Positions 11,569 through 52,619 of a stretch of 64,000 nt of DNA are shown here, piece by piece; positions within the stretch are counted from its first letter, which is position 1; every line of letters begins with the position of its first letter. Below the pieces are notes generated by a model, which searched no databases, was not told where the DNA came from, and worked only from the letters and a program-made list of their open reading frames with translations. The stretch comes from a virus (taxonomy: Duplodnaviria; Caudoviricetes), in IMG/VR virus record IMGVR_UViG_3300032219_002227, positions 96,001 through 160,000 of that record; one strand, given 5' to 3'. The position numbers were made by a program, and so were the translations under genes.

Positions 11569-12518
11569 TGAAATTTTTAGATAAGATACTTAATGAATGG
11601 TCATTTCGTTGCCATGATGGAATTGTTGATGTAAATGATTCTAAAAAACTTGATATTCTAAATGAAATTCTAGATGAATATAAAATTAAAGATTTCATTC
11701 TAGAATTATCTAATACAGATCATTTTGCTAAACGTTTAGGAGAACGCGGTAACGTATTAGATATATTAAATCTAAAAGATATACCTCTTAAAGATTACAA
11801 ATTTACTGAAGTAAAAGAAAAACTTAAAACTAATATATCAGAAGAACTAGTACAGCGTGCTGATAAAGTATTAAATAAAGATATACCATCATCTGTTATG
11901 TATGATGTAGGTATAAAAATACTTAAACCTGTACTTGTAGTTGATGGTGAAAAATATCCTCTTAGATTATTTGCAAAATCAACTAAAGAAATAAAAGATA
12001 AAGAAGGTAACGTAAAAGAAGTTATATTAGTAGATAATAAAGGTACATTATATTTTGCTACTGTTGCTGATAATCACGTAACTACATTATTATTGCTTGA
12101 TAAAGAAGACGATAATGACCTATATTTCCAAATTAAAGATCATGTAGATAGAAAAAAAGGAGGAGATAAAGAAGCTAAAATATTAACTCCACCAAATTAT
12201 ATCTATGAAATTGATCTAGATGTATTAATGGGTAAAGAAAAAGAACCACAACAAGGTCCTGCTTTAATAGATCCATCTACTTTACCTTATAAAGTAAGAA
12301 CTGATTATAGAGCCGGAGCTAACTTTGAACATGAAAAGTTTGGAACAGGTAAAATAGAAACTACATCAGCCGGTTCTGGAGGTAAAGGAGATTCTAGAGG
12401 AACACTTGATTGGGTTGATGTGAAATATCCAAAACCATTCCTTAAAGGAGGTAAATTAACAAATATACGTCGCTTTGATAATATACTTACTTTAGCTTCT
12501 CCTTTGTTGGCAAAGTAA
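11568..12518 (+). CDS. Putative internal protein with C-terminal PcrA/UvrD-type Tudor domain
   Basis: MKFLDKILNE tag; G...HEKFGTGKI...VDVKYPKP...IRR pattern. Confidence 0.6.
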   Translation: MKFLDKILNEWSFRCHDGIVDVNDSKKLDILNEILDEYKIKDFILELSNTDHFAKRLGERGNVLDILNLKDIPLKDYKFTEVKEKLKTNISEELVQRADKVLNKDIPSSVMYDVGIKILKPVLVVDGEKYPLRLFAKSTKEIKDKEGNVKEVILVDNKGTLYFATVADNHVTTLLLLDKEDDNDLYFQIKDHVDRKKGGDKEAKILTPPNYIYEIDLDVLMGKEKEPQQGPALIDPSTLPYKVRTDYRAGANFEHEKFGTGKIETTSAGSGGKGDSRGTLDWVDVKYPKPFLKGGKLTNIRRFDNILTLASPLLAK

Positions 12519-12536
12519 ATCTTATACATTTATTGT

Positions 12537-13019
12537 ATGAATATATTTTATATACACGTAGATCCAATTATTGCTGCACAACAACTTGCCGACGATCATA
12601 TCCGCAAAATGCAAATCGAATCAGCACAAATGTGTTGCACTACACATTGGGTGAATGGTGGTGAAGCACCATATAAGAAAGCTCATTATAATCACCCATC
12701 AACTAAATGGGTACGTGAATCAATTCAACATTATCGTTGGCTTGTACAACATGGTTTAGAAATTTGTAATGAATTTATTAAACGTTATGGAAAAATACAT
12801 AAAACTCAAGCAGTACTTGAATGGTGTCGTAACAATGAGCCAAATATCCCTGACAATGGGTTTACTCCTCCACCACAATGTATGCCAGATGAATACAAAA
12901 AAGACGATACTATTGTAGCTTATCGCGAATTTTATATAAAAGATAAAATAGGTATTAAAGGATTAGGATGGAAAAAATTAAATAATGCTCCTAAGTGGAT
13001 ATTTATTGAAAACATATAG
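12537..13019 (+). CDS. denV: Pyrimidine-dimer DNA glycosylase / endonuclease V family
   Basis: MNIF...DDHIRKMQIESAQM, YKKAHYNHPSTKWVRES, EFIKRYGKIH, PQCMPDEY. Confidence 0.8.
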   Translation: MNIFYIHVDPIIAAQQLADDHIRKMQIESAQMCCTTHWVNGGEAPYKKAHYNHPSTKWVRESIQHYRWLVQHGLEICNEFIKRYGKIHKTQAVLEWCRNNEPNIPDNGFTPPPQCMPDEYKKDDTIVAYREFYIKDKIGIKGLGWKKLNNAPKWIFIENI

Positions 13020-13094
13020 AACAGATTCATTGCCTGTTCGCTCGTAAGAGATAAAATATTGGAGTAGTGGCCCACCTAAAAGGTGGGCTTCTTT
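13011..13094 (+). ncRNA. Candidate structured small RNA (stem-loop, GNRA hairpin, potential pseudoknot, terminator)
   Basis: GAACAG/CTGTTC stem 13019-13039; CTC-GTAA-GAG 13041-13050; loop CATTGC can pair with GTAGTG 13064-13069; ATATTTAT at 12999. Confidence 0.5.
13070..13094 (+). terminator. Intrinsic terminator
   Basis: GCCCACC-TAAAA-GGTGGGC followed by TTCTTT. Confidence 0.7.
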
Positions 13095-13146
13095 AATTTG
13101 TATATGGCAAAGTTTTTTATTAAATTTATATATTCAATTTAAAATT

Positions 13147-14538
13147 ATGAGAAGTCATCAAAGAGCAATTAGAGGATGGAATAATATGATTAATAATGCT
13201 ATCCCGGCTGAAAGTAAAATTAAAACATTTGTACCATTACCTTCACAAGAACTTAAAAAAATTGTTATTGTAGGAGCGGGTGTAGCAGGTATTAATGCTG
13301 CTACTAAATTAGTTGATAATGGTTATCCTGGAGAACTAATTACTATTATAGACAAAGGAAATAATCCACATAATCGTTTACCTGAAGAAGTAATGACAGG
13401 TATGCTTGGTGCTGGTGGTTGGTCTGATGGTAAATTAACTCACCACACAGCAATTGGAGGACAACTAAACAAATATTGTGGTGATGAGAAAGCAATGGAA
13501 TTGATGGATCAAGTTATTTCTAATTTTAGACGCTTCCATCCAAAACCAGAAGAAATATTTATGTCTGATCCACAAAAAGAACCTGAATTTATTAAACCAT
13601 ATTTTGGTTTGAGAATGTTTCCTGTATGGCATATTGGTTCTAATTTCTTACATGAGATTGCTAAATCATGGTATCAATATTTAGTTGATAAAGGTGTTAA
13701 ATTTGAATGGAATACTGAAGTGAATAATATTGACTTTAAAAATAATTACATAATAGGAGTATATAATAATAAAAATTGTGACTATTATTATGATGAATTA
13801 ATATTCGCAGTAGGCAAATCAGGTATTGATTTTGCTCAAAAACTAGCAGATAATTACAAATTACCTAATGAACCTAAATCAGTACAAATTGGAGTTCGAT
13901 TTGAAGCACCACAAAAATACTTTCAAAAATTAATTGATGTATCATATGATTTTAAATTATACCAAAAATTTGATAACGTTAGTTTACGTTCATTTTGTAC
14001 TAATAATAATGCTGCCTATGTGGCTGTTGAAGAGACTTACGGAAACATTAGCTATAACGGACATGCTAAAAAAGGTAAGGAATTTGAGAATCAAATGACT
14101 AACTTTGGTATCTTAATGGAAATTAAAGGTATTGAAGATCCATTTAAATGGAGTAGAGATGTAGTTAAAAAACTTCAATCTAATAAAACAGGATTATACT
14201 ATTCACCTTCTCGCACCCCAGCATTAACATCAGAAGGAATGACAGTATCTTCTACTCAAATAGATAATTTATCTCCTGTAAGAAAAGCAATGGGTAAATA
14301 TTTTAATTATATTGAAGATTTTATCAATGATATGAACAAAGTATTTAACTTTGGTGATGATTGGGGAATGTATATTCCTGAAGTAAAATATCTATCACCT
14401 GAACCATTAATTAATTATAATGACTTATCACTTACAGAATATACTAATGTACATTTTGTAGGAGATGCACTTTCAGCTCGAGGTATTACAGTTAGTGGAG
14501 CTCAAGGTATTTATGTAGCAGAATCACTTTTAAAATAA
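13147..14538 (+). CDS. FAD-dependent oxidoreductase (COG2509-like NAD(FAD)-utilising dehydrogenase)
   Basis: IVIVGAGVAG Rossmann motif; GxxGAGGWSDGKL; RSFC; YNGH; FVGDA...RGI..S..QG. Confidence 0.85.
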   Translation: MRSHQRAIRGWNNMINNAIPAESKIKTFVPLPSQELKKIVIVGAGVAGINAATKLVDNGYPGELITIIDKGNNPHNRLPEEVMTGMLGAGGWSDGKLTHHTAIGGQLNKYCGDEKAMELMDQVISNFRRFHPKPEEIFMSDPQKEPEFIKPYFGLRMFPVWHIGSNFLHEIAKSWYQYLVDKGVKFEWNTEVNNIDFKNNYIIGVYNNKNCDYYYDELIFAVGKSGIDFAQKLADNYKLPNEPKSVQIGVRFEAPQKYFQKLIDVSYDFKLYQKFDNVSLRSFCTNNNAAYVAVEETYGNISYNGHAKKGKEFENQMTNFGILMEIKGIEDPFKWSRDVVKKLQSNKTGLYYSPSRTPALTSEGMTVSSTQIDNLSPVRKAMGKYFNYIEDFINDMNKVFNFGDDWGMYIPEVKYLSPEPLINYNDLSLTEYTNVHFVGDALSARGITVSGAQGIYVAESLLK

Positions 14539-36740: not shown

Positions 36741-37487
36741 ATGGCTAATCAATTTTTAAAATTACGCCGTAGTAGCGTACCCGGCAAAAGGCCTGATACA
36801 GGCTCCTTAGATTACGGTGAGATAGCTCTTAACACGTATGATGGTTTAGCCTTCATAAAAAAGTCTGGTTCTAATGGTGAAGAAATAGTTGCAATTGGTT
36901 CTACAGGTTCATTTACAGGTTCGTTTTTTGGGTCATTACAAGGTACTTCGAGTTGGGCTACTAATGCTCTAACAGCATCTTCAGCTGATAATTTTACAGT
37001 AAGAGGTACATTAACTGCTCAAACTATAGTAGTACAAGTTATTACTTCATCAACTGAGTTTGTTACTGGATCTTTAATTGTAAGTGGTGCTTTAAATGTA
37101 TTTGGTGGTATTACTGGTTCTTTAAATGGTACCGCTAGTTGGGCTACTAATGCAATATCTGCATCTTATGTTCCTGCTTCTGCTATTGTCGGATTAAATC
37201 TATCTAGAATAACAACGGGCAGTATTACTGCTAGTGTAGATGTAGATCCTAATAATTTATTTTTAATTAAATCAGGAAGTAACACTTATTTTAATATTGC
37301 TAATAATAGTAATATAACATTATATAGCAATCAATTCATCGTAAAAAATTTCACAACACAAGAACCTATTTTAACTATATCACAAAGTATAGTACAATTC
37401 GCAACTCAATCATTAAACCCTACTAACCCAGCAAAAGGTGGAGATGTTTGGTTTACTTCAACAGAATTGTATGTAGGTCTAAACTAG
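36741..37487 (+). CDS. Tail fibre subunit with T4 gp36/gp37-like N-terminal module
   Basis: LKLRRSSVPGKRP..L.YGEIALNTYDG; TGS/TASW repeats. Confidence 0.75.
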   Translation: MANQFLKLRRSSVPGKRPDTGSLDYGEIALNTYDGLAFIKKSGSNGEEIVAIGSTGSFTGSFFGSLQGTSSWATNALTASSADNFTVRGTLTAQTIVVQVITSSTEFVTGSLIVSGALNVFGGITGSLNGTASWATNAISASYVPASAIVGLNLSRITTGSITASVDVDPNNLFLIKSGSNTYFNIANNSNITLYSNQFIVKNFTTQEPILTISQSIVQFATQSLNPTNPAKGGDVWFTSTELYVGLN

Positions 37488-37526
37488 ATAATATTTATTA
37501 ACGTACAAATCTAAAATAAAAGTATA

Positions 37527-39548
37527 ATGCCAACTTGGAAAAAAGTCATAGTCTCCGGCAGTCAAGCTGAGCTAGCTACATTAAAAGTAGATAATTTAGT
37601 AAATGGTATTGTAACCGGTAGTGCTAACGGATCACTAGGAATAGCCCCAGTAAATGGTACCGGTGCTGTTACATTGACAACAAACGCTACTGGATTAGTC
37701 CATTCTGGTTCATTTAGTGGCTCATTTAGTGGATTACTTATTACTGCTTTACCTGCAGCTAGCCAACCTAACTTTGTTGCCTATAATGTTTCTACTGGAC
37801 AATTATCATATGCTGGTACTGGTTCATTTACAGCTGCAACAGCATCTTATATAACTTCTTCTAACGTTGATGGTCCTTTTGGACGTAATAGTATTTTAAC
37901 TGCCTCATATGCTGTGTTTGCTACTTCAGCATCATATGCTATAAATTCAGGCAACGCTCAAAGTGCTTCATTTGCAACAAATACAGTAAGTGCTTCTTAT
38001 GCATTAAATGCAGGCAACGCTCAATCAGCATCATTTGCAACAAACGCAGGTAGTGCTTCATATGCACTTAATGCTGGTAATGCGCAAACAGCATCTTTCG
38101 CTACAAACGCAAATAGTGCCTCATACGCTGTAAATGCTGGTAATGCTCAAACCGCTTCATTTGCTACTAATGCTGGTGCTGCAGTAACTGCTCAAACAGC
38201 ATCTTCAGCAGATAACTTTTTAGTTAGATCAAGTATTACAGCAACTGGCTCTTTCAACATATCAGGTAGTATTACTTCAACTGGTACTATTACCGCTCAA
38301 ACACTTGTAGTTCAAACAATTACTTCAAGTGTTGATTTCGTAACTGGTTCAACTCGCTTTGGTACTTTAGCTTCTAATACACACTTATTTACAGGAAGTG
38401 TTAGCATCAGTGGTAGTTTGACCGTTCAAGGTGCTGTTAGTGCCTCTAGCTTTACAGGTAGTTTATTAGGTAATGTAACTAGTGCCTCATTTGCTACAAC
38501 TGCTGTTTCATCTTCTTACTCATTAACAGCCACTTCAGCATCATATGCTGTAAATGCTGGTAATGCAATTTCAGCTTCATTCTCTACTAATGCTGTTTCA
38601 TCATCATACGCATTAAATGCAGGTAATGCTATTTCTGCTTCATTCTCAACAAACGCAGGAAGTGCATCATATGCTCTCAACGCAGGTAATGCAATTTCAG
38701 CTTCGTTTGCTACAAACGCAGGAAGTGCTTCATATGCTCTTAATGCAGGTAATGCTCAGAGTGCTTCATTTGCTACAAATGCTGCAAATGCTGCTACAGC
38801 GTCGTTTATCACATCTTCTAACGTAGTTGGTCCTAATGGTCCTAACACGATATTAAGTTCATCATTTGCTATAACAGCATCGTTTGCTCAAAACGGAGGT
38901 TCACTTACTAATGCCTTAACATTTGGTGTAGGCTTATCTGGTAGTGCTGCTTCATTTAATGGTGCTGCTGCAGTAACAGTTGCAATTTCAGGATCTAATT
39001 CCTTAACAACAGGTAACCATCCAAAATGGACAGGTACTGGATTCACAAATAGTCTTATTAGTGATAACGGTACTACAGTTACTATTGCTTCTGGATCTAC
39101 AATTACTGCTGGTGGATTAACAGTAACAGGTAATTCAACGTTTAATAATAATGTAACTATAGCCGGTGACTTAGCAGTTAATGGTACTACAACATTTATT
39201 AATACTACTAATACTTTTATTAAAGATCAGTTTGTATTAATTAATAGTGGTTCTAATACATTAAGTGATGGTGGTATTATAGTACAATATAGTACTGGTT
39301 CTGGAGCTGGACCTGTAGGTTCTGCAATTTTCCTTGAATCAGCAGCAGCTGGAACTTTTGGAAGATGGGCAGTTGCTTATGGAGTAACTGGTTCTCAAAC
39401 TGTAGTAGCTGCTGATGAATATATAGTAAGTACTATAATATCTGCTTCTTCCGCTTTACCAACAGCTCCAACTTGGGGTGGTGCTACAAACGGATTAGGT
39501 AACATGTTTATTAATAGTGTAAACGGTGATATATTTATTTATTCTTAG
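37527..39548 (+). CDS. Tail fibre protein with SAS(Y/F)A repeats
   Basis: MPTWKKVIVSGS start; two tracts of ~21-aa repeats; GDLAVNGTTTFINT.N..IKD motif. Confidence 0.8.
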   Translation: MPTWKKVIVSGSQAELATLKVDNLVNGIVTGSANGSLGIAPVNGTGAVTLTTNATGLVHSGSFSGSFSGLLITALPAASQPNFVAYNVSTGQLSYAGTGSFTAATASYITSSNVDGPFGRNSILTASYAVFATSASYAINSGNAQSASFATNTVSASYALNAGNAQSASFATNAGSASYALNAGNAQTASFATNANSASYAVNAGNAQTASFATNAGAAVTAQTASSADNFLVRSSITATGSFNISGSITSTGTITAQTLVVQTITSSVDFVTGSTRFGTLASNTHLFTGSVSISGSLTVQGAVSASSFTGSLLGNVTSASFATTAVSSSYSLTATSASYAVNAGNAISASFSTNAVSSSYALNAGNAISASFSTNAGSASYALNAGNAISASFATNAGSASYALNAGNAQSASFATNAANAATASFITSSNVVGPNGPNTILSSSFAITASFAQNGGSLTNALTFGVGLSGSAASFNGAAAVTVAISGSNSLTTGNHPKWTGTGFTNSLISDNGTTVTIASGSTITAGGLTVTGNSTFNNNVTIAGDLAVNGTTTFINTTNTFIKDQFVLINSGSNTLSDGGIIVQYSTGSGAGPVGSAIFLESAAAGTFGRWAVAYGVTGSQTVVAADEYIVSTIISASSALPTAPTWGGATNGLGNMFINSVNGDIFIYS

Positions 39549-39556
39549 TAAAATTT

Positions 39557-39790
39557 ATGTTTAATAAAATAAAAAAGTTTATGGGTTTCAGTTCAAAAAA
39601 TATGGTTGTGACTAATGATAGTAATACTCAACAATCTCAAAATACTCCAGTTCCTCATAGCGAATTTTCGCTACAGGAACTGGAGATTCTTTTAATTGCT
39701 TTAAAAGAATGTAATCTAAAAGGATCACAAATTGAGTTATTTTACAATTTAGTATTGAAAATACAAAATAAGTATTTAAGTCAAAAATAA
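39557..39790 (+). CDS. Small protein, possible fibre assembly chaperone
   Basis: Lies between fibre genes; helical C-terminus; start may be 39581. Confidence 0.5.
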   Translation: MFNKIKKFMGFSSKNMVVTNDSNTQQSQNTPVPHSEFSLQELEILLIALKECNLKGSQIELFYNLVLKIQNKYLSQK

Positions 39791-39815
39791 TTAAAAGAGG
39801 TTATATATTTATACC

Positions 39816-39894
39816 CACAACCATGTTGGCCCGAAAGGGAAGTAGGCATATACACGGCATAAGTGTATGTATCTAACCGCAGTATAAAGTTGTG
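39816..39894 (+). ncRNA. Candidate multi-stem structured leader RNA
   Basis: CACAAC/GTTGTG closing stem, CCC-GAAA-GGG, TAGG-C-ATATACAC/GTGTATGT-A-TCTA; directly after ATATTTAT 39805 and before ATG 39906. Confidence 0.55.
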
Positions 39895-39905
39895 AACAAA
39901 TTAAT

Positions 39906-42900
39906 ATGCCAAACTGGAAAAAAGTCATTGTATCTGGCTCAAATGCTACTTTAAACTCTTTATTCGTTAGCACTAGTGTTACGGCTAGTATATTTTCTGG
40001 TTCGGCCTTTACAGGTTCATTATTTGGTACTGCAAGTTGGGCTAATAATGCTACAACATCATCATTTGCAACAAATGCAGGAAGTGCATCTTATGCTCTT
40101 AATGCTGGCAACGCCCAATCCGCTTCATTCGCAGCAACCGCATCCTCAGCAGATAATTTCTTAGTTAGAGGCACGTTAACGGCTCAAACAATTGTAGCTC
40201 AAGTTATAACATCGTCTACTGATTTCGTAACTGGTTCTACTAGATTTGGTACATTACTTTCTAATACACATCAGTTTACTGGTAGTGTTAGTATTACGGG
40301 TAGCCTAGCAATGAATGGGGATATTAATGTAACACCAGATAAAATTATATCTGCAGGAGGTAATGGCTCCGCTCAAGCTGGTGTTTCTATGTGGGGTACA
40401 CAAAATGCTAGTCTTGGATGGGATGGATTTTTTGGTAGAAGTTTATATTATAGTGGATCTAACTATATATATTCATCAACAAATGCTGCTTCTTTATGGG
40501 GAACAGTAGCTGGAATTAGAGTTTTAGGATCAGTAGCAAGTGCTTTACAATTTATAGCTAGACCGGCAACTGAACAAGGGTTAAACGTAACTGCTTCTGA
40601 TATAGGTTCTTATACTAGAATGACTATATTATATGATGGTAATATTGGTATAGGTACAACATCACCAACAGCTACTCTTCATGTTTCTAACAGTACAACA
40701 CCATCAGTTTTCCGAGTAGATACTGCTGGAGGAGTAGGAAGTTTATTTGTTAGTGCAAGCAGTAATGTTGGTATAGGTACTACAACTCCATCAGCAAAAC
40801 TAGATGTTAATGGTAATACTGTAATTACAGGTTCCCTTACAGTCATCACAGGCAGTAATATTGAACTTCAAGTACTAAACACAGGAGTTAGAATAGGAAA
40901 CATCATTACTGATGTTCACACCGTAACAGGTTCACTTGGCGTTAGTGGTAGTGTAACTGCAACCAATTTTACAGGTTCTCTCTTCGGTACCGCTAGTTGG
41001 GCTAATAATGTTGTAAGTTCATCTTATGCACTGAATGCAGGTAATGCTCAAACAGCTTCGTTTGCTATAACTGCTTCTTTTGCTTTAAATGGAGGTGGAG
41101 GCCCCTCAGGTCCATCATCCGGAGCAGCATACACACATACTCAAGCAGCACCTTCTACAACTTGGACTGTAGATCATAATTTAAATAATTCATATCCGGT
41201 AGTTACTGTTTATGATTTTAGCGGATTTGTAGTTGTTCCTTTAAATATATCTTCGTCAAATGTAAATAGAACAACAATAACTTTCTCTTATGGAGCAACA
41301 GGTTATGCTACTGCTGTAGCTGCTGGAGTATCAAATATTATTTCAGCATCGTTTGCTACCAATGCAGCAACTGCTCAAACTGCTTCATTCTTTGGTGGTT
41401 CTATTTCAAGTGCAGTATCAGCATCATATGCTTCCTCTTCTACTTCAGCATCATTTGCTACAAATGCTGTAACAGCTCAAACTGCTTCTTTCTTTAGTGG
41501 AACTGTTACATCAGCATCATATGCTCTTAATGCAGGTAATACTCAAACTGCTTCATTTGCAACTAATGCAAACAGTGCTTCATATGCTTTGAATGCAGGT
41601 AATACTATCTCAGCATCATTCGCTACTAATACAAACAGTGCTTCATACGCATTAAATGCTGGTAATGCTCAATCAGCATCATTCGCTAATAATGCAGGTA
41701 GTGCTTCATATGCTCTGAATGCCGGTAATGCTCAATCATCATCGTTTGCAGCAACAGCCTCATCAGCAGATAACTTTACAGTTAGAGGTACATTAACTGC
41801 TCAAACTATTGTTGTTCAAACAATTACCTCAAGTACTGATTTTATAACTGGATCAACTAGGTTTGGTACTTTGGCTTCTAATACTCATGTGTTTACAGGT
41901 AGCGTTAGTATTAGTGGCAGTCTTACCGTTCAGGGAGCAATTAGTGGTTCTAATATTACTGGTAGTCTTTTAGGAACAGCATCATACGCTAACAATGCTC
42001 TAAGTTCATCTTATGCAGTAAATTCCGGTAATACAATTTCCGCTTCATTCTCAACAAATGCAGGTAGTTCATCATACGCTCTTAATGCTGGTAATACAAT
42101 CTCAGCTTCGTTTACTACAAACGCAGGCAGTGCTTCATACGCATTGAATGCTGGAAATTCTATTACAGCATCGTTTGCAACAAATGCAAACAGTGCTTCA
42201 TATGCATTGAATGCAGGTAATGCTCAAAGTGCTTCATTCGCTACAAATGCAGCAAATGCCTTTATACAAAATGGTAATTCATTTGGTGCACAAGCATTAC
42301 TTGGTACTAATGATGCTCAAAACTTAGCTTTCGAGACTAATGGTACGATTAGGATGACTGTTGATTCTAATGGAAATGTTGGTATTGGAACTAATGTACC
42401 TACTAGATCATTAGATATTAGAGGTGCTGCAAGAATTGAAACTGCAAGTACTACTGAATTTGATTTTATTGGTGGGGGAGGTAATATACTTCGTATTTCA
42501 TGTGGAGCAACCATACCATTTATTGGAACATTAACAAACGCACCCTTAGGCTTTTTTACTGGTGCAACTGAACGTGCACGTATTGATGCTAATGGAAACT
42601 TTGGTATAGGTACTACAGCTCCATCTGCTAGACTAGATGTTAGTGGTAGCACAGTAATTACAGGCTCACTTACAGTCATTACCGGTAGTAATATTGAACT
42701 TCAAGTACTAAATACAGGAGTAAGAATAGGAAATATTATTACTGATGTTCATACTATAACAGGCTCACTCGGTATTAGCGGTAGTGTTACAGCAACTAAT
42801 TTTACAGGTTCATTATTAGGCACTGCTTCATTTGCAACATCTGCTTCTTGGGCACCAGGAGGTGGAGGCGGAGGAACACCAGGAGGTTCAAATACACAAA

Positions 42901-43439
42901 TACAATATAATAATGCATCTACTTTTGGTGGAGTGCCAGTATTAACTTATGATGGTACTACATTAAGAGCAACAGGTTCATTTACTGGATCATTAACAGG
43001 AGCATTAATTGGTACAGCTTCATTTGCAACATCGGCATCATGGGCCCCAAGTGCTGGTGGATCTACATTTCCTTTTACTGGTACTGCTGTTATAACAGGC
43101 TCATTAGTTGTAACTGGATCTTTTGATCTTAATAATACTAGATTTAATTCTACTTCATCCGCAACAACAGCAGGTACAACAATAGTATCTTCTAATGCTA
43201 CTGGTTCTTTTAATTCAGCATTCTATAATTACTATATATCATCTGGTTCAAATGCTAGAGCAGGACAAATTATGTCTGTATGGAGTGGTAGTACAATAAA
43301 TTATACTGAAGTAACAACTACTGATATAGGAAATACAAATACAGCTTCTCTTGCTGTAACATTAGCTACAGGAAATGTGCGTTTAAGTTTTACAGCACCT
43401 GGTGTTTGGACAGTAAGATCAATTGTTAACCTATTATAA
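39906..43439 (+). CDS. Long tail fibre protein (SAS(Y/F)A repeats, GNVGIGT modules)
   Basis: MPNWKKVIVSGS start; duplicated modules; HTQ...TWTVDHNL...PVV; PGGSNTQIQYN. Confidence 0.85.
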   Translation: MPNWKKVIVSGSNATLNSLFVSTSVTASIFSGSAFTGSLFGTASWANNATTSSFATNAGSASYALNAGNAQSASFAATASSADNFLVRGTLTAQTIVAQVITSSTDFVTGSTRFGTLLSNTHQFTGSVSITGSLAMNGDINVTPDKIISAGGNGSAQAGVSMWGTQNASLGWDGFFGRSLYYSGSNYIYSSTNAASLWGTVAGIRVLGSVASALQFIARPATEQGLNVTASDIGSYTRMTILYDGNIGIGTTSPTATLHVSNSTTPSVFRVDTAGGVGSLFVSASSNVGIGTTTPSAKLDVNGNTVITGSLTVITGSNIELQVLNTGVRIGNIITDVHTVTGSLGVSGSVTATNFTGSLFGTASWANNVVSSSYALNAGNAQTASFAITASFALNGGGGPSGPSSGAAYTHTQAAPSTTWTVDHNLNNSYPVVTVYDFSGFVVVPLNISSSNVNRTTITFSYGATGYATAVAAGVSNIISASFATNAATAQTASFFGGSISSAVSASYASSSTSASFATNAVTAQTASFFSGTVTSASYALNAGNTQTASFATNANSASYALNAGNTISASFATNTNSASYALNAGNAQSASFANNAGSASYALNAGNAQSSSFAATASSADNFTVRGTLTAQTIVVQTITSSTDFITGSTRFGTLASNTHVFTGSVSISGSLTVQGAISGSNITGSLLGTASYANNALSSSYAVNSGNTISASFSTNAGSSSYALNAGNTISASFTTNAGSASYALNAGNSITASFATNANSASYALNAGNAQSASFATNAANAFIQNGNSFGAQALLGTNDAQNLAFETNGTIRMTVDSNGNVGIGTNVPTRSLDIRGAARIETASTTEFDFIGGGGNILRISCGATIPFIGTLTNAPLGFFTGATERARIDANGNFGIGTTAPSARLDVSGSTVITGSLTVITGSNIELQVLNTGVRIGNIITDVHTITGSLGISGSVTATNFTGSLLGTASFATSASWAPGGGGGGTPGGSNTQIQYNNASTFGGVPVLTYDGTTLRATGSFTGSLTGALIGTASFATSASWAPSAGGSTFPFTGTAVITGSLVVTGSFDLNNTRFNSTSSATTAGTTIVSSNATGSFNSAFYNYYISSGSNARAGQIMSVWSGSTINYTEVTTTDIGNTNTASLAVTLATGNVRLSFTAPGVWTVRSIVNLL

Positions 43440-43450
43440 AATAAAGGTAT

Positions 43451-45055
43451 ATGGCATTTCATTGTGGACCAAGACCAGAAAATATACTTCCTGTATTTTT
43501 ATTAAATAATTACCCAGGAGCGTCTGCTGCTTATTCTCTTAGAAAAGTAGATTCTGCATATGCTGGATCTGCTATTAAAGTAAGAAGATCGTCTGATAAT
43601 ACTGAACAGGATATAGGATTTGTCAATAATCGATTAGATACCGGATCTCTAACTACTTTTGTTGGATCTGGAAATGGATTTGTTTCTGTATGGTATGATC
43701 AATCTGGAAATGGTAGACACGTAAGTCAATCCGTTTTGACTAGTCAACCTCGAATAGTAAGTGCTAGTGTAATAGAAAATATAGGAGGAAGACCAGTATT
43801 AAATTGGCATACTTCTTCTGTCTATTTAAATAGACAAAATACAACATATAGTGCAAGTGCAGCTTTTTTTGTTGCACGAGCTAGTAGTTCTCATTTTAGT
43901 GCTTTTGCGCCTGTTTTTGGTGGTGCTAATTTAGGAGCATCAGCTGGAGCAATACGACTACAATTAACAACTACATATTATGCTGCTGTTTCTACTGGTG
44001 TTAATACTGGAGGTGATTTAACATTTTCTGATGGTCAGTTTTATATTAATGATAATATAATTAGTGCTAGTTTTGATAATAATAGAAAATATCATATAGG
44101 ATCTGTTATGGCCGGAAGTGCAAGTAGAGTCTTAACTGCTGTGCAAATAGGAGTAGAAAATCTAACTACTAGAACATGGGCTGGACAAATTCAAGAAATG
44201 ATTCTATATCCTAACGACCAATCAGCTAGTAGGGTTAACATCCAGAATAATATAAATAGCTACTACGTAGTATATGATACTACAGGATATAGACTAATAG
44301 ATCCATACATACGTGTTCCTGCAGCTTATTCTTTACGTTTAGTATCGTCAACTTATTATGATAGATTTGCTATCAGAGTAAGAAGATCATCTGATAATGC
44401 TGAACAAGATATTGGATTTGTAGGTGATGATTTAGATACAGCTTCCTTACTTTCATTTGCTGGTGCTGGAAGTGCATTTGTTACTACATGGTACGACCAA
44501 TCTGGTAATCAAAACCATGCTATACAAACAACATCAGCTAACCAACCAAGAATAGTAAATACAGGAAGTCTTGATACAGTAAATGGCAAACCAGCATTGT
44601 ACTTCTCAGGTACTTCAAGTACATTAAGTATAACTACAAATGTTTCATATACATCTAATAATGTTGTTTTTGTTGCAAAAACAGATACATCACCTACTGC
44701 ATATGCTGCTGTATATGCTGGTCAAGCCAATTCAAGAATCATACGATTAGAATTAACAAATGCCTATTATAGACTAAATGGAGTAACATCTGATAGTAAT
44801 GATTATTATTTCGGAGCTAGCATGTTTTTTAATGGAGGAGCAGCTTCAGTTAGTAATAATGCTTTAAACCAACATTTAGTATTTGCTAATAATGGATCTC
44901 CATCTACTTTAAATACTATAGTAGGAATTGGTTCTTATAATAATGCTGCTTTTTGGAAAGGTCATATTCAAGAATTAGTTGTATTTACTCAAAATGTATC
45001 TAGCAGCAGAGCAATAATAGAATCAAATATTAATTCATACTATTTAATATATTAA
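43451..45055 (+). CDS. Tandem ConA/arabinofuranosidase-B-like lectin domain protein (receptor binding)
   Basis: Two copies of AAYSLR...VRRSSDN.EQDIGF...WYDQSGN...QPRIV...W.G.IQE...NINSYY. Confidence 0.8.
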   Translation: MAFHCGPRPENILPVFLLNNYPGASAAYSLRKVDSAYAGSAIKVRRSSDNTEQDIGFVNNRLDTGSLTTFVGSGNGFVSVWYDQSGNGRHVSQSVLTSQPRIVSASVIENIGGRPVLNWHTSSVYLNRQNTTYSASAAFFVARASSSHFSAFAPVFGGANLGASAGAIRLQLTTTYYAAVSTGVNTGGDLTFSDGQFYINDNIISASFDNNRKYHIGSVMAGSASRVLTAVQIGVENLTTRTWAGQIQEMILYPNDQSASRVNIQNNINSYYVVYDTTGYRLIDPYIRVPAAYSLRLVSSTYYDRFAIRVRRSSDNAEQDIGFVGDDLDTASLLSFAGAGSAFVTTWYDQSGNQNHAIQTTSANQPRIVNTGSLDTVNGKPALYFSGTSSTLSITTNVSYTSNNVVFVAKTDTSPTAYAAVYAGQANSRIIRLELTNAYYRLNGVTSDSNDYYFGASMFFNGGAASVSNNALNQHLVFANNGSPSTLNTIVGIGSYNNAAFWKGHIQELVVFTQNVSSSRAIIESNINSYYLIY

Positions 45056-45057
45056 TC

Positions 45058-45933
45058 ATGGGAATAACAGGTGGACCAAATATAGTAAGAGATAGCAGTT
45101 TAATACTGGATTTAGATGCATCTGATGACAACAGTAATTATAGAACTAATGGTAGAATATGGAATGATTTAAGTGGAAATAGTAATACTGGATCTATTGT
45201 AAATGGAGCTGCTTTAAATAATGATAGTCTTGGTAGCTTTACCTTTAATGGTATAAATAGTTATATACTCCTACCAGCTAATTTTTTTAACAACAATGCA
45301 GGAACTCCTTTTACTGTTTCATTATGGTTTAAAACATCTACTGCTGGAATTATATTGGGGCAACAAGATACTAGTTCTCCTAATAGTGCATCTGGATATG
45401 TTCCTGCAATATACACCGATACTAATGGAAAGATTAGAACATCCTGTTTTTGGGGAGGTTCCACTACTAACCAATCAATATCTACATTAACTGTTACTGA
45501 TAATGCATGGCATAATATAACAGTTACTTTTGCTTCTAATTCTCAAATTAGTTATTTAGATGGAAATTCTTTTGCTACTTTAGCTAAAACTCAAACTACT
45601 TATGCTTCTGTATATTATTATTTCATAGGAACAGGAGCCTGGGTTGGTTGGCCATTCCCAGTGTTTAGTCCATTTTTTAGTGGAAGTATAGCAAACATGC
45701 TTTTCTATAATCGTGCCCTTAGTGCTACAGAAGTACAAGCAAACTATAATCAATTTCAATCTCGCTTTAGTTCAACAACATCAAATATAATCACATATGT
45801 AACATTAAACCAAGCAACAGCTATAGGTATATTCAACAATGATGGTATAGAATTTTCAAATATAATAGTTGGATACCCTTCATATGCATTAGCAAATGCT
45901 TTTGTTTTAGTAAATGAACAATCTACAATTTAA
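45058..45933 (+). CDS. LamG-like jelly-roll domain structural protein
   Basis: L.LDASD, WNDLSGN.N.G, FNG.NSY, FTVSLWFK, WHNI, YNRALS..EV..NY. Confidence 0.85.
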   Translation: MGITGGPNIVRDSSLILDLDASDDNSNYRTNGRIWNDLSGNSNTGSIVNGAALNNDSLGSFTFNGINSYILLPANFFNNNAGTPFTVSLWFKTSTAGIILGQQDTSSPNSASGYVPAIYTDTNGKIRTSCFWGGSTTNQSISTLTVTDNAWHNITVTFASNSQISYLDGNSFATLAKTQTTYASVYYYFIGTGAWVGWPFPVFSPFFSGSIANMLFYNRALSATEVQANYNQFQSRFSSTTSNIITYVTLNQATAIGIFNNDGIEFSNIIVGYPSYALANAFVLVNEQSTI

Positions 45934-45974
45934 CAGATATGTATTGTAAAGTATATATCCACAAATCAATATAA

Positions 45975-48900
45975 ATGGCAAAAAATTTAGTAAGAAATTA
46001 TACCTTTAATGCAGCTGCAAAAACAGTAGCATTCTCAGGTCACTACACTTTGAATCAATTATTATTGATTACAAATGCTACTCGCAACATTATTATCTAT
46101 AACTTTGCAGATGCTACTTTAGGAGCTACTAGAAGCTATAATAGTACAACTGACATTACAACATTTACATTAACATATAATACAGCAGCAGCTATGGCTA
46201 ATGCTGATATAATTCAAATATATGTAGATGATTTATACAATGAATTTAGACCGGATGCTGTATTATTAGATCCAGTTGATAAACAAAGGGTATCTACACC
46301 CCAAGCCTTAATTGATACTGACTTTGAATATGGTACTCAAATTACAAAATGGGAAAATCTCATCTTAACAAATAATAGACCGTTTGCTTTTGCTATTCCT
46401 ACTCAGATACCTAGTGTTTCTAGTATGACAATGAATACTAACTCTAGAATTGTAACTGCATCATTATCAGCGGGTGTAGCACCTGCAAACGGTACTCCAA
46501 TTACAGTTCAAGATACTATTTTAATTATAGCAAATGGTAACTATTTAATTGAAACTGGTGGTGGTACAAGTACATTTACATACACAGCTAGAGGCACAAA
46601 TACAACAACTATTACTTCTATATTTGATGCTAATAAAACAAATATATTTAGAGGCCAACTTTTTACAGGAGTTAATATTGGTGGTGCTCCTACAATGGCT
46701 TTTACTTCTTCAAAGATTGATGTTACAACAACAGTTCCTCATGGTCTTTCATTAGGTAATGAAATTGCAATAACTGGATCAACAGCTTCTACTAATGCTC
46801 CAAATGGGTCATTTATTGTTTCAACAATACAATCACCAACTCGATTTTCATATTATGTACCTACAGGATCTATTCCAACAGGTACTCTATCAGGAACTGG
46901 AGCTATAATATACGTAAGACCACCAGGCCAAGTATTACATAGACCATTCGATGGAGGTGTTCAGTTTTCAAGTAATGGTAGCTCAAATTATTCCCATACT
47001 CTTCGCCAAACAAGAAGGTATTTCCGTTACCAGTCAGGTAAAGGTATTCAAATAAGTTCTGGTACTATTTTAAAACCAAATTTCCAAATTGATAGTTTAA
47101 GATCATCTGGTACAACAGTAACTGTTCAAACAAAAGAACAACATAATATTATACCAAATGATACAATTACTGTTTTAGGTGCTAATGAATCTGCTTATAA
47201 TGGTACTTTCGTTGTATCAAACGTAACAGGATACAATACCTTTACTTATACTGCCTTAACAACTCCATCTGCCGCTATTGCATCTGGTCTTTTCTCTTTA
47301 TCAGTAGTAAACTGGTTTGGTGCTGTAAATAGATTAGGTATATTTGATAATCAAAATGGATTATTTTTTGAGTATGACGGTCAGACTCTAAGTGCTGTTA
47401 GAAGAACCTCTACATTTCAACTTTCAGGAGAAGTAACTGTAACTTCTGGTTCAAATACAGTTATTCAAACAAGTACTTCTTTTCCTACAATATTCTCAAA
47501 GCAATTAGTTCCTGGTGATAATATTGTAATTCGAGGTGCCTCTTATAGAGTAATAGATATAGCTAGTGACGTAAGTATGTCTATTAATCCATCTTATAGA
47601 GGAGCAACTTCCCAATTTGCTATTGTATCTAAAACACAAGATATTAAATTCCCTCAATCAACTTGGAACTTAGATAAATTGGATGGTACTGGACCTTCAG
47701 GCTATAATATAGATTTATCTAAAATGCAAATGTTCTATATTGATTATAGTTGGTATGGAGCTGGTTTTATTCGTTGGGGACTTAGAGGAGCTAATGGACA
47801 AGTTACATATTGCCATAAAGTAATAAACAATAATACCAATACAGAAGCATATATGAGATCAGGTAACTTACCTGCTCGTTATGAATCTTTAACTCAACCT
47901 CCAATTACAATATTATCAGCATCTTTTGATACTGCTGCTACAACATTGTTTGTTTCAAGTTCAGCTGGCTTCCCACTTTCAGGCACATTGTGTATTAGAG
48001 ATGCAAGCAAATATGAATTTGTAACTTATCAAGGCACAGGTTCAAATTCATTTAGTATCGTAAAAAGAGAACAATCTGGTTCCTTAGCCTTATCAATGAC
48101 TATGAATAGTGGCTCTAATATAGCCTCAATTGCTCCAGCAGCAACAGCAAGTTTACAAATTGGACAAAGAATTATAGGTCCTGCCTTTCCAGATGGGACA
48201 TTTATTAGTGCAATTTCAAGTTCATTTATAATACTTACTCAAGCATCAACAGGTTCAAACCCAATAGCAATAGCAGCACCAATGGGTGTAGGTACAGCAT
48301 CTAACTTTACATATGCAGCCGATGCTCCTGTAGCAGTTGAATTAGCATATCCAACATTTGCACCTTCAATATCACACTGGGGTACATCGATTATTATGGA
48401 TGGTAGATTCGATGATGATAAATCATTACTATTTACCTATGGCCAATCTATAGCTACAAATATTCCTGTTGGGCAAACAAGAGCTCTATTCTCAATTAGA
48501 ATTTCTCCTTCAGTTGATAGTGGAATACCGGCAGCATTTGGTGCTCGTGAATTAATAAACAGAATGCAGTTAGTATTAAGACAGTTAGGTGTTGCTACAA
48601 ACCAAACAGTTAGTGGTAGTAATATTAACCTACTTGTAAGAGCTAATCTTAACGGAACACCAAGTGGATCTGTAGCAAGAGCATGGACAAACGCAGTATC
48701 AGGTTCAACAACAGCCGTTAACTCATCTTTAGCCCAAATCGCTGACTATGCAGGTCAAAACTACCAAGTAGATGGTGGTGAAACAATAGCTGGTTTCTTT
48801 GTAGATGGTACAGGTACATCAGATCTTTCGCTAGTACGAGATTTAGGTAATTCAATCTTAGGTGGAGGTGGTGCTACATCAAATATTCAAATTTATCCTG

Positions 48901-48995
48901 ATGGTCCTGATATAGTAACTTTTATCGCACAAAACGTAGGTTTAAATACTGTAAACGTATTTGGTCGTATATCATGGACAGAATCACAAGCATAA
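45975..48995 (+). CDS. Large virion structural/fibre protein with HGL-type beta modules
   Basis: YTFNAAAKTV, LLLITN, DPVDKQRVSTPQALIDTDFEYG, PHGL..G..I.I.G, RQTRRYFRYQSGK, SWYGAG. Confidence 0.75.
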   Translation: MAKNLVRNYTFNAAAKTVAFSGHYTLNQLLLITNATRNIIIYNFADATLGATRSYNSTTDITTFTLTYNTAAAMANADIIQIYVDDLYNEFRPDAVLLDPVDKQRVSTPQALIDTDFEYGTQITKWENLILTNNRPFAFAIPTQIPSVSSMTMNTNSRIVTASLSAGVAPANGTPITVQDTILIIANGNYLIETGGGTSTFTYTARGTNTTTITSIFDANKTNIFRGQLFTGVNIGGAPTMAFTSSKIDVTTTVPHGLSLGNEIAITGSTASTNAPNGSFIVSTIQSPTRFSYYVPTGSIPTGTLSGTGAIIYVRPPGQVLHRPFDGGVQFSSNGSSNYSHTLRQTRRYFRYQSGKGIQISSGTILKPNFQIDSLRSSGTTVTVQTKEQHNIIPNDTITVLGANESAYNGTFVVSNVTGYNTFTYTALTTPSAAIASGLFSLSVVNWFGAVNRLGIFDNQNGLFFEYDGQTLSAVRRTSTFQLSGEVTVTSGSNTVIQTSTSFPTIFSKQLVPGDNIVIRGASYRVIDIASDVSMSINPSYRGATSQFAIVSKTQDIKFPQSTWNLDKLDGTGPSGYNIDLSKMQMFYIDYSWYGAGFIRWGLRGANGQVTYCHKVINNNTNTEAYMRSGNLPARYESLTQPPITILSASFDTAATTLFVSSSAGFPLSGTLCIRDASKYEFVTYQGTGSNSFSIVKREQSGSLALSMTMNSGSNIASIAPAATASLQIGQRIIGPAFPDGTFISAISSSFIILTQASTGSNPIAIAAPMGVGTASNFTYAADAPVAVELAYPTFAPSISHWGTSIIMDGRFDDDKSLLFTYGQSIATNIPVGQTRALFSIRISPSVDSGIPAAFGARELINRMQLVLRQLGVATNQTVSGSNINLLVRANLNGTPSGSVARAWTNAVSGSTTAVNSSLAQIADYAGQNYQVDGGETIAGFFVDGTGTSDLSLVRDLGNSILGGGGATSNIQIYPDGPDIVTFIAQNVGLNTVNVFGRISWTESQA

Positions 48996-49002
48996 AAATG
49001 TT

Positions 49003-49662
49003 ATGGCAACACAATTCGCATTTGGTAAAATAGTAACAGACGGATTAGTACTAGCATTAGATGCTGCTGATTCAAATTCATATGTTAGTGGAAGCACCAC
49101 ATGGGTTGATATGAGTGGAAATAATAATAGTGGTAGTTTAACTAATGGACCTACTTTTTCAAATAATAGTATTGTATTTGATGGAGTAGATGATAGGATT
49201 ACTTGTACAAATAATGCAAGTGTTCAAATAACAGTTGGAACTATCGGAGCATGGATAAACGCCAATTCAAATAATACCGGTTTTAGAGGTATAATAACAA
49301 AACAAAGTGCTTGGGGATTGTTCTTATCTGATAACGTATTAGTAACTTATGATTGGGGAGGAGGTGGAACACGTTCTACGGGAATTAATATAGGAAATAA
49401 TACTTGGAACTATGTGGCTATGAGTTTTACTGAAACCATCGGAACACCATCAAATAATGCAATTGTATATCTTAATGGAAATCCTATTTTAACTACAACT
49501 GTGAGGCATAGTAGTCATACAGTTACAGTACAAATAGGAGATGGAAATTCCGTTCAGTATTTTTCTGGAAGAATACCATCCGCACATATATATAATTTAG
49601 TTTTATCACCACAAGAAATTCTACAAAACTATAACGCACAAAAATCACGCTTTAATTTATAA
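49003..49662 (+). CDS. LamG-like jelly-roll domain structural protein
   Basis: IVTDGLVLALDAAD..SY..GSTTW.DMSGN, FDGVDD, IYN..LS..EILQNYNA; ATG 49003 preferred over TTG 48961. Confidence 0.85.
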   Translation: MATQFAFGKIVTDGLVLALDAADSNSYVSGSTTWVDMSGNNNSGSLTNGPTFSNNSIVFDGVDDRITCTNNASVQITVGTIGAWINANSNNTGFRGIITKQSAWGLFLSDNVLVTYDWGGGGTRSTGINIGNNTWNYVAMSFTETIGTPSNNAIVYLNGNPILTTTVRHSSHTVTVQIGDGNSVQYFSGRIPSAHIYNLVLSPQEILQNYNAQKSRFNL

Positions 49663-49665
49663 ACT

Positions 49666-49923
49666 ATGGCATACGAAAACAGAGAATTTATGATCTTCGA
49701 TGTATCCGAATTAGATACAATTAACTTTAATGAAGTGCTAGAAACATCAATTGATACAGTAAGAAAATCAGTAGATGGAACAAAAACATTTGTTAAATGG
49801 GATGGAACAACTATCCCCTCATCAGTAGACTCATTAACAACTAAAGAAGGACCATATACCTACAACGAAATATTAGACATCCTCGCAACATCAGAATGGA
49901 ATCAGCCTATGCCAATGTTATAA
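49666..49923 (+). CDS. Small protein accompanying the LamG genes
   Basis: ETS..TVRKSVDGTKTFVKW...PYT..EIL..L...EW. Confidence 0.7.
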   Translation: MAYENREFMIFDVSELDTINFNEVLETSIDTVRKSVDGTKTFVKWDGTTIPSSVDSLTTKEGPYTYNEILDILATSEWNQPMPML

Positions 49924-49971
49924 TCTGTTATATTTATTCGTAGCTGTTGGACAGTGAAAACAGTATAAATT

Positions 49972-50991
49972 ATGCCAAACGAATTCAAAGTCAAAAATGG
50001 CCTACTTGTCAGTGGGTCTGCAAATATTAACTCCTCCGGATCAAGTGTATTCACTGTTGACGGCACATCAGGCCGCCTATTTTCTGTTGATGATTCACTT
50101 TCTGGATCCTTATTTTCAGTCAATACAGCAGCTGGTCTTCCTATAATTGAAGCTTTTTCAGATAATACTGTTCGTATTGGACAGTTTGGACAAAGAGCAC
50201 TTTTTGTTTCTCAATCTAGAGTAGGTATAGGTAAAGAAACAGGATTAAATGCAACCTTAGATGTTAGTGGAAGTGCTATTTTATCTGGATCCTTTACTGT
50301 TTTTACTACTGGTAGTGGGGCAGAATTTCAAGTACTAAATACAGGTGTTAAAATTGGTAATATTATTACTGATATTCATGCAATAACTGGATCTATAAGT
50401 GTTTCTGGTTCAATTACAGGTTCATTATTTGGAACTTCTTCATTTGCTTTAACTGCTTCTTTTGCTTCAAATGCAGGCGGTGGTGGTACTGTAACAGGCC
50501 AAATCATACTAACTGCAGGTGGTGGTTGGCCTTCCATTACATCAGGATCTAATGCACCAATATTAGCAGAAACGGCAACTAATAGAGTCAACTTTTATTA
50601 TATAGGTTTTCCTGATACTGTTCAAACATTTGCAAACTGGGCAATGCCAATGCCCTCTGATTATAATGGTGGTACTATAACCGCAGTATTTTATTGGGTA
50701 GCAGGTAGTGCATCAACAAATAGTGTGCGTTGGGGGTTAGCAGCTAGGGCATACGCTGATAGTGACGCATTAGACCAAGCATTTGGTACCGCACAAGAAG
50801 TAACAGATGCAAACCAAGCGAATGATGACGTTAATATATCCGCAGCGACTTCGGCAATTACAATTGGAGGTACACCTACAGGAAGTAACTTTGTACAATT
50901 TAGAGCTTTTAGAAACCCAGCAGATGCTGCTGACACTTTAGCGGCAACTGCGGAACTTTTATCGATAAGAATAACATATACAAGAGCTTAA
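49972..50991 (+). CDS. Tail fibre-type protein: MPNEFKVKNGL head, fibre module, C-terminal beta-sandwich
   Basis: G..GRLFSV.DSLSGSLFSVN..GLP; poly-Gly linker; MPSDY.GGTI. Confidence 0.7.
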   Translation: MPNEFKVKNGLLVSGSANINSSGSSVFTVDGTSGRLFSVDDSLSGSLFSVNTAAGLPIIEAFSDNTVRIGQFGQRALFVSQSRVGIGKETGLNATLDVSGSAILSGSFTVFTTGSGAEFQVLNTGVKIGNIITDIHAITGSISVSGSITGSLFGTSSFALTASFASNAGGGGTVTGQIILTAGGGWPSITSGSNAPILAETATNRVNFYYIGFPDTVQTFANWAMPMPSDYNGGTITAVFYWVAGSASTNSVRWGLAARAYADSDALDQAFGTAQEVTDANQANDDVNISAATSAITIGGTPTGSNFVQFRAFRNPADAADTLAATAELLSIRITYTRA

Positions 50992-50994
50992 AAT

Positions 50995-52287: not shown

Positions 52288-52299
52288 AAATATAACAAT

Positions 52300-52575: not shown

Positions 52576-52619
52576 TAACATAACTTTAAAATATTTATAC
52601 TAGATAATCACAATACAAT

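Follow-up and report, generated by a model that had tools for sequence, protein, structure and literature searches.

A candidate antiterminator/terminator switch with a covarying kissing-loop domain upstream of a flavoenzyme gene in T4-like phages

In the fluoride and ZTP riboswitches, a strand of the pseudoknot overlaps the 5' strand of the terminator. Overlap of an aptamer strand with the terminator 5' strand is the typical design of terminator-based riboswitches that switch their genes ON (PMC7736828). The element described here was found in a 64,000-nucleotide (nt) stretch of viral DNA, called the window (positions 96,001 to 160,000 of the IMG/VR record IMGVR_UViG_3300032219_002227, Caudoviricetes). 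It stands between a denV-like gene and a gene encoding an oxidoreductase dependent on flavin adenine dinucleotide (FAD). Like the terminator-based ON riboswitches, it combines a structured domain, a long-range pairing that shares the terminator 5' strand, a terminator more stable than the competing fold, and a consistent set of genes. Unlike in these riboswitches, the long-range pairing is formed between two loops, those of hairpins P1 and P3, the latter closed by a helix of 3 base pairs (bp), and no Rfam family is matched. Also unlike them, the element usually has a promoter between the terminator and the gene, and it was seen on phage contigs only.

The leader of T4/T2 gene 32 contains an H-type pseudoknot that serves as the nucleation site for the protein encoded by the gene, which represses its own translation in this way. 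The element resembles this pseudoknot in being compact, in its second helix of 7 bp and in its position before a gene of a T4-type phage. However, the gene 32 pseudoknot has no coupling to a terminator, there is no homology, and the downstream gene is different. PeSL cassettes are short and occupy many sites per genome, in hyperplastic regions. In T4-like phages, they consist of a stem-loop terminator followed by a promoter and lie where genes are gained, lost or swapped, with duplicated and truncated copies flanking inserted genes (PMC2839356, PMC4122927); all this is seen in the element too. Unlike PeSLs, the element is single-copy in its genome, is tied to one gene module and contains, in addition, a covarying kissing-loop domain of about 55 nt formed by P1 and P3. 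In the guanidine-IV (mepA) riboswitch, an ON switch with an intrinsic terminator, two hairpins are proposed to kiss via their loops (PMC7736828). There the terminator itself serves as the second hairpin and a steric mechanism is presumed, whereas in the element a separate hairpin P3 competes for the terminator bases. The gene context is also different, and the Rfam search gave no guanidine-IV match.

The reading preferred here, with a probability of about one half, is that the element is a cis-acting, riboswitch-like antiterminator/terminator switch which is ON when the kissing loop is stabilised. All features noted in the initial annotation, which was made from the letters of the window, were located at their positions by direct reading of the sequence. 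The layout of the locus, including denV and FAD open reading frames (ORFs), is as follows.

12537-13019, + strand: denV-like pyrimidine-dimer DNA glycosylase gene (Pfam PF03013, Pyr_excise; phrog_624)
12999-13006, + strand: ATATTTAT, candidate late-type phage promoter motif within the last codons of the denV-like ORF
13009-13018, + strand: conserved 5' box, consensus TAAC-ATATAG, with stop codons in two frames
13019-13039, + strand: hairpin P1, stem 13019-13024/13034-13039 (GAACAG/CUGUUC), 9-nt loop AUUCAUUGC at 13025-13033
13027-13033, + strand: 5' strand of the loop-loop helix, inside the P1 loop
13041-13050, + strand: optional hairpin P2, CUC-GUAA-GAG, inside the variable linker
13051-13059, + strand: A/U-rich single-stranded linker, conserved in composition, not in sequence and length
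13060-13074, + strand: hairpin P3 (antiterminator), pairs U13060-A13074, G13061-C13073 and G13062-C13072, 9-nt loop 13063-13071
13064-13070, + strand: 3' strand of the loop-loop helix, in the P3 loop (GUAGUG is 13064-13069)
13069-13099, + strand: intrinsic terminator found by a terminator scan, stem 13069-13076/13082-13089, loop UAAAA, tail UCUUUAAUUU
13097-13128, + strand: promoter-like element, TTTG at 13097-13100, N20, TAAATTTA at 13121-13128, with TAnnTTTG-type architecture
13147-14538, + strand: COG2509-like FAD-dependent oxidoreductase gene (463 aa), the first ORF 3' of the element

The spacer between the two ORFs is 127 nt long, and the TAG stop of denV (13017-13019) overlaps the first base of the P1 stem. 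This stretch of the window folds better than expected (z = -3.3); none of 200 shuffled sequences folds as well.

Related loci were fetched by the two flanking proteins, and a blastn search with the spacer matched about 90 of them. A covariance model, R1, was built from an alignment of 70 distinct copies of the element (A1). In A1, positions A3, A4, T7 and A8 of the 5' box are conserved in at least 90% of copies, and A10 and G11 are invariant. The model finds a single copy both in the window and in the whole 173-kb genome (E 1e-19; next best match E 0.2), with no second copy elsewhere in the window. It has 122 matches in the related loci selected by genes and none in the distant denV loci L143-L160. 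The element-first sample was obtained by scanning viral contigs for a DNA pattern with no gene criterion. The scan yielded at least 120 stretches, and 80 loci were examined; all 80 contain an R1 match (82 matches in total among the matches listed). Both samples together hold at least about 165 distinct versions of the element on IMG/VR viral contigs. A loose-pattern scan of bacterial genomes gave at least 120 chance stretches, and none of the 80 loci kept from it scores with R1 (best E 0.11). No R1 match was found in three Bacteroidota and 151 sampled Flavobacteriaceae genomes, which is a weak negative, as few candidates were scored per genome. Among the viral contigs and bacterial genomes sampled, the element is located on phage contigs only.

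A search of Rfam 15 at the gathering score, covering the whole window and 15 homologous loci, matched no family. This agrees with the initial annotation, where the element could not be assigned to preQ1, SAM-II, fluoride or pistol RNAs; ZTP, SAM-V and guanidine-I to IV are unmatched as well. At E up to 10, the region 12800-13300 gave only chance matches driven by the terminator (SprD, Phe and Trp leaders, tracrRNA). The Phe leader match around the element scored 15.9 bits against a gathering score of 55, and the Trp leader 15 against 41. No description of the element was found in the literature searched. The element is a structured RNA that is new in itself but belongs to a known general kind; its layout, which combines an aptamer-like kissing loop, a terminator and a promoter, is unusual.

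In the collected homologues, conservation and covariation were both found, and this includes the pairing that had been proposed to form a pseudoknot. RNAalifold, applied to a MAFFT alignment of 70 homologues, predicts this loop pairing (13027-13033/13064-13070) as the sole consensus helix. It was described initially as 6 bp long; addition of U13027-G13070 makes it 7 bp. In the loop-loop helix, 99.6-100% of alignment cells are paired, with compensatory combinations such as AU49/UA21, CG65/UA5 and GC45/GU19/AU4. The four pairs of the P1 core are formed in 100% of cells, three of them with compensatory changes, and at one P1 pair all four Watson-Crick combinations are seen (UA29/AU27/GC11/CG10 in the element-first sample). 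The observed covariation score is reached in none of 500 shuffles. When the partners were slid by 1-3 columns as a control, at most 41% of cells could pair in one comparison and at most 52% across the three alignments, whereas P1, P3 and the loop-loop helix together have 94-100% of cells paired across alignments, with compensatory changes. The GNRA hairpin CUC-GUAA-GAG (P2) of the initial annotation is present in the window, but it is not conserved: 62.6% of cells are paired, and only a minority of relatives have it. In most relatives the linker is shorter, A/U-rich and devoid of P2.

The two U-G wobbles of the loop pairing are nearly invariant. On the opposite strand they would be A-C mismatches, and thus the functional molecule is the RNA of the + strand. 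The changes of pair states were counted on a tree, calculated with FastTree, of 90 distinct FAD proteins encoded next to the element. The minimum numbers of changes are 22 for the inner pair of P3, 12 for an AU/UA pair of the loop-loop helix and 20 for P1; recombination and errors of the tree may inflate these counts. Since the changes are repeated on the tree, the compensations do not go back to one inherited event.

The P1 loop AUUCAUAGC (13025-13033) is also complementary to (CU)AUGAAU, the sequence with which denV and many FAD genes of the short form begin, and the loop-pairing strand GCUGUGG resembles this start region with G in place of A. Complementarity of at least 6 nt to the P1 loop was observed at 45% of downstream starts vs 18% of all gene starts in the genome; this signal comes mostly from the ATGAAT starts of homologous genes, and masking of the downstream start codon by the P1 loop is no more than a lead.

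The top score in an all-against-all mutual-information scan belongs to G13062-C13072, a pair absent from the initial annotation. In A1 it is paired in 100% of cells (GC36/CG24/UA5/AU3/UG2). All three pairs of P3 compensate in the element-first sample (GC35/UA27, GC54/AU21 and GC44/CG22/UA7/AU4). P3 closes the 9-nt loop 13063-13071 holding the 3' strand of the long-range pairing. Therefore, the pairing initially called a pseudoknot does covary, but its topology is that of a kissing complex of P1 and P3, with the 3' strand in the loop of a 3-bp helix. The same scan revealed no helix between the 5' box and the tail after the terminator.

The 3' strand of P3 (CCA, 13072-13074) falls centrally within the terminator 5' strand. 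The terminator covaries too, as illustrated by C13072-G13086 (CG34/GC13/GU11/AU5). Hence there is double covariation: position 13072 covaries with 13062 in P3 and with 13086 in the terminator, and position 13074 with 13060 and 13084. As the same bases are complementary to two alternative partners, the two folds are mutually exclusive, and both are selected. Terminators of the relatives were detected with a simple finder in 125 versions. In 119 of these, all three bases of the P3 3' strand are paired in the terminator. The terminator takes two to seven of the seven loop-pairing bases, and all seven in 20 versions (e.g. L299, L321, L345), where the strand GCUGUGGC is the 5' strand of the terminator and pairs with GCCACAGC before the U run.

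In the window, the folding energy is -15 kcal/mol for the terminator, -0.7 kcal/mol for P3 and about -5 kcal/mol for the loop pairing taken as a plain duplex (-7.4 for the consensus). As the terminator is far more stable, it is the ground state, and the kissing fold, which can form first during transcription, needs to be stabilised in order to persist. Such energetics fit a kinetic switch that is OFF by default. The expression platform varies, the terminator being short, long or absent, while P1, P3 and the loops stay constant. A subfamily of five relatives (L288:2229-2321, L306:6678-6767, L333:1303-1392, L359:4768-4858 and L360:2868-2957) has P1, P3 and the loops intact and no U-tract terminator. 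There the 5' strand of P3, GGG, could pair instead with a downstream UCCC, which also pairs with GGGG in a hairpin including a TATATTTA box; these relatives may thus use another kind of expression platform.

The linkage of the element to its downstream genes is observed also in the sample selected with no gene criterion. Among the 82 copies listed there, the first downstream ORF is the FAD gene in 62 cases, denV in 11 and another ORF in nine. In 81 copies, FAD or denV is the first or second ORF downstream, in the same orientation; the one remaining copy is truncated. The 11 copies with denV first have the FAD gene next, except three with a contig end or another ORF, and eight of the nine copies preceding another ORF then have the FAD gene. 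The upstream ORFs are mostly unlike that of the window (no match in 63 copies) and mostly unlike one another.

The order of events that we propose starts with P1, which would fold first during RNA synthesis. P3 would fold next, and its loop would pair with the P1 loop into the 7-bp kissing complex, which would hold positions 13064-13074 shared with the 5' half of the terminator. If the complex is stabilised by a small molecule, an ion or a protein, it would persist, and the terminator could not form fully beside the U-tract. RNA polymerase would then read through to the downstream genes (ON). Otherwise the more stable terminator would displace P3, and transcription would end near 13096 (default OFF). 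Both folds, their covariation and the gene linkage are borne out by the data; the existence of an effector, this direction of the switch and its timing are inferred. The switch would gate transcription arriving from upstream, that is, late-gene messages in most relatives and transcripts from its own ATATTTAT in the phage considered. A host-type promoter would provide expression of the downstream gene independent of the switch.

The 173-kb genome has 58 copies of the motif ATATTTAT on the + strand and 13 on the - strand, about 27.5 being expected. Most copies are 5-37 nt before ORF starts, including those of the scaffold and capsid genes and neighbouring structural genes. The copies in the window span 465-63581 (e.g. 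28577, 31496, 32195). It is plausible from its distribution that ATATTTAT is a candidate late promoter of the phage, distinct from TATAAATA of T4. From the copy at 12999, the leader RNA would start near 13012-13014. The motif stands 15-32 nt before P1 in only eight of 164 distinct versions, namely the window and seven relatives. Its like spacing behind unrelated upstream genes suggests a real promoter, although a lineage-restricted one. Among the 146 versions that have an upstream ORF, its stop codon is separated from the P1 core by 7-8 nt in 65 and by at most 12 nt in 104. Apart from the versions with ATATTTAT, no promoter of their own is recognisable. As the upstream ORF ends just before the element in most versions, the RNA is likely to be the 3' continuation of the upstream message.

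A TTG element at -33 and its spacing are features of Bacteroidetes promoters. The promoter-like element between the terminator and the gene is presumably of the type reported for Bacteroidota. The host-type promoter suspected initially at 13097-13128 was supported and refined to TTTG-N20-TAAATTTA. By consensus match, TTG-N19/20-TAnnTTT[AGT] precedes the downstream ATG in 81 of 165 distinct versions vs 1.1% of random 60-nt windows. The distance to the ATG is 4-7 nt before denV and short forms of the FAD gene and 12-24 nt before its long forms. The sigma-A -7 box of Flavobacterium is TAnnTTTG at -12 to -5 (PMC9723704). In the window, both denV (12503-12536) and the FAD gene (13097-13146) are preceded by TTTG-N18/20-TAnnTTTA with a common GGCAAAG in the spacer. 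Since this promoter lies between the terminator and the gene in many versions, the switch most likely gates only transcription derived from upstream.

Several observations count against a switch. With a promoter-like element before the start codon in about half of the versions, expression of the downstream gene may not require read-through, an unusual situation for a riboswitch. The terminator of the window shares only two bases with the loop-loop helix, besides the three bases of P3, and five relatives have no recognisable terminator. P3 itself is only 3 bp long, and few of the conserved bases are left unpaired to form a ligand pocket. The genes downstream amount to a single module of denV, the FAD enzyme and occasional inserts, not a range of unrelated families, and searches with the sequence and fold of the FAD enzyme give no hint of a ligand. 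The proposal of the initial annotation that a riboswitch-like switch controls the FAD oxidoreductase is still favoured by the covarying domain, the competition between P3 and the terminator, the gene linkage and the variable platform, with the reservation that a promoter intervenes. A narrower version of it is offered tentatively, and is more doubtful than the switch as such: the element may represent a new riboswitch class, known only from these T4-like phage contigs, whose kissing-loop aptamer of about 55 nt (P1, P3 and the 7-bp helix) would bind a metabolite or ion and so enable late read-through into the genes of the UV-repair glycosylase and the COG2509 flavoenzyme.

The element is also a recombination anchor, as follows from half-copies before inserted genes and from inserts after the element, similarly to the PeSL cassettes. 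The gene order is denV-element-FAD in the window, element-denV-FAD in many relatives and element-denV-element-FAD in L110 and L114. Two full copies are present in L110:2893-3877, L114:2889-4080, L108:167-877 (same contig as L136) and L075:1589-2311. In these relatives, one copy is before denV (in L075, a broken remnant of the FAD gene), and the other is followed by an inserted ORF or the FAD gene. The loss of one or the other copy would explain why denV precedes the element in the window and follows it elsewhere. The insert right after the element in L330:4931-5458 encodes a GIY-YIG endonuclease (Pfam E 3.5e-10). Inserts in L031:2345-2992, L075:2322-2990, L340:531-1169 and L113:2483-2956 have, by eye, an N-terminus similar to GIY...YVGK, with no match to the Pfam GIY-YIG domain. 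These inserts look like free-standing homing endonuclease genes using the intergenic site. A different pyrimidine-dimer glycosylase is inserted in L351, and a weak P-loop protein, below the Pfam cut-off, in L334. Half-copies comprising the 5' part of the element precede inserted ORFs in L051:2444-2513 and in L111:1584-1651 (the same as L338:4585-4652). They retain P1 and the linker, are devoid of P3 and the terminator, and look like scars of recombination within the element. The ORFs following them encode an RMQ(x)LAG motif near the N-terminus.

Of the explanations that remain as rivals, the most plausible, although improbable compared with the switch, is a standalone trans-acting small RNA. 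It would be about 85 nt long, end at the terminator, and arise either by transcription from a promoter of its own or by processing of the upstream message at the 3' end. Its target would be a host or phage factor, or it would be a partner or substrate of the flavoenzyme, and the alternation of P3 and the terminator would be a folding intermediate only. Such an RNA would account for the constant spacing of ATATTTAT before P1 behind unrelated genes, for the strong terminator directly after the element, and for the separate promoter of the next gene, as expected for an independent transcription unit; even the tight co-inheritance with the FAD gene would fit an RNA-protein partnership. However, the late small RNA of the initial annotation suits only the few genomes with their own ATATTTAT: the other 156 of 164 versions have no recognisable promoter, and the ORF usually ends 7-8 nt before the stem. 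Nor would a small RNA have any reason to select for P3, which its own terminator must destroy, or for a constant set of P1, P3 and loops beside a variable terminator, and no seed region is left free, since the bases conserved best all pair among themselves. Its suggested role as an antitoxin mimic was not borne out, there being no repeat array and no toxin-like neighbour. A type III toxin-antitoxin RNA was rejected as well: the element consists of one unit, without a further copy in its vicinity, and the downstream gene encodes a flavoenzyme. Somewhat less probable than a small RNA is a boundary cassette of the PeSL type, which would insulate the denV/FAD module from variable upstream late or cargo genes and anchor recombination, its extra structure protecting the 3' end of the message or aiding termination. 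The immediate succession of a terminator and a promoter-like element is that of the PeSLs described in PMC4122927, the upstream neighbours are highly variable, denV is before or after the element depending on the phage, and the double copies (L075, L108/L136, L110, L114), half-copies (L051, L111) and GIY-YIG genes are found where such a cassette would have them. But there is one copy in this genome rather than a dispersed family, and a plain insulator needs neither a covarying kissing loop nor a helix competing with the terminator; the use in recombination may follow from conservation and need not be the function.

Less likely again is translation-coupled attenuation, in which P1 would be melted by a ribosome that terminates 0-12 nt upstream of it, on the stop codon of the preceding ORF; kissing would be blocked, so that the terminator forms. 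The switch would then report how close the ribosome is to RNA polymerase and sense no ligand. The short distances between stop codons and the P1 core, cited above, are what it would predict, the denV stop codon of the window reaches into the first P1 pair, and the 5' box has stops in two frames. On the other hand, this spacing may merely reflect compaction and recombination at the edge of a conserved element. The distance is larger in 42 of the 146 relatives, 18 elements have no nearby ORF, and no regulatory codons of the leader-peptide kind are present. A leader-peptide attenuator proper was rejected: the upstream ORFs are full-length and unrelated (56-550 aa in the element-first sample), and the matches to the Phe and Trp leaders are far below the gathering scores. 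A frameshift or readthrough signal for the upstream ORF was also rejected, as these ORFs have no relation to one another and end at varying sites, and indels in the linker are not multiples of three. A small self-cleaving ribozyme is very improbable. The pistol ribozyme has a hairpin, an A-rich linker, a pseudoknot strand and a second hairpin, the loop of the first hairpin pairing with the strand beside the second. The element resembles this topology and has invariant A10, G11, G16, A17, U18, A55 and G56. However, neither Pistol nor another ribozyme family appeared in Rfam at E up to 10, nor in the 15 homologous loci; the mutual-information scan gave no covariation for the helix that pistol forms between the linker and the 3' tail; and the second hairpin acts as a terminator with a U-tract.

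For the FAD protein, Pfam gives nothing beyond generic matches of the Rossmann type, and PF21688 was found in 21 of 64 homologues. Its AlphaFold model has pLDDT 92.4, and the best fold match is 3NLC, an uncharacterised Vibrio protein from structural genomics (E 3e-21). The sources label the family as "uncharacterized FAD-dependent dehydrogenase". It is represented widely: 7,932 of the 8,000 scored metagenomic protein clusters (90% identity) match at E <= 1e-5.

The genome carrying the element is a complete virus record of 173,246 bp with terminal repeats. The phage is T4-like, as the genome encodes a capsid protein of the Gp23 family. The G+C content is 31%, and 165 ORFs of at least 100 aa are on one strand vs four on the other. 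Over the whole genome, Shine-Dalgarno-like motifs occur at eight of 165 gene starts vs a background of 9%, and positions -10 to -13 of the starts are rich in A. The promoter type and these translation features, among them the missing Shine-Dalgarno signal (compare PMC6847099), together suggest that the host belongs to the Bacteroidota. The region of the element had no blastn match in GenBank phages. With the FAD protein, the best tblastn matches in GenBank phages have 25-29% identity and belong to Campylobacter T4-like phages and human faecal phage contigs. The phage thus represents a lineage without a close relative in the GenBank phage collection searched, from which near relatives may be missing. 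Elsewhere in the window, at 36900-56800, several very long ORFs contain large families of degenerate direct repeats of 27, 36 and 63 nt; they are rich in Ser, Ala, Asn and Gly codons and probably encode fibre proteins with repeated motifs.

Orphan RNAs that have covariation for both a sensing domain and a competing terminator are rare, and they are the best starting points for the discovery of riboswitch ligands. If there is no ligand, the element would still illustrate clearly how the border of late and host-type transcription units can be regulated and, at the same time, be an anchor for recombination. If a metabolite is sensed, the phage would tune its module of DNA repair and flavoenzyme genes to the chemical state of the infected cell, and the metabolite would point to the substrate of COG2509. 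Should the element indeed be a riboswitch class, its ligand would be the first functional clue to a widespread uncharacterised enzyme family.

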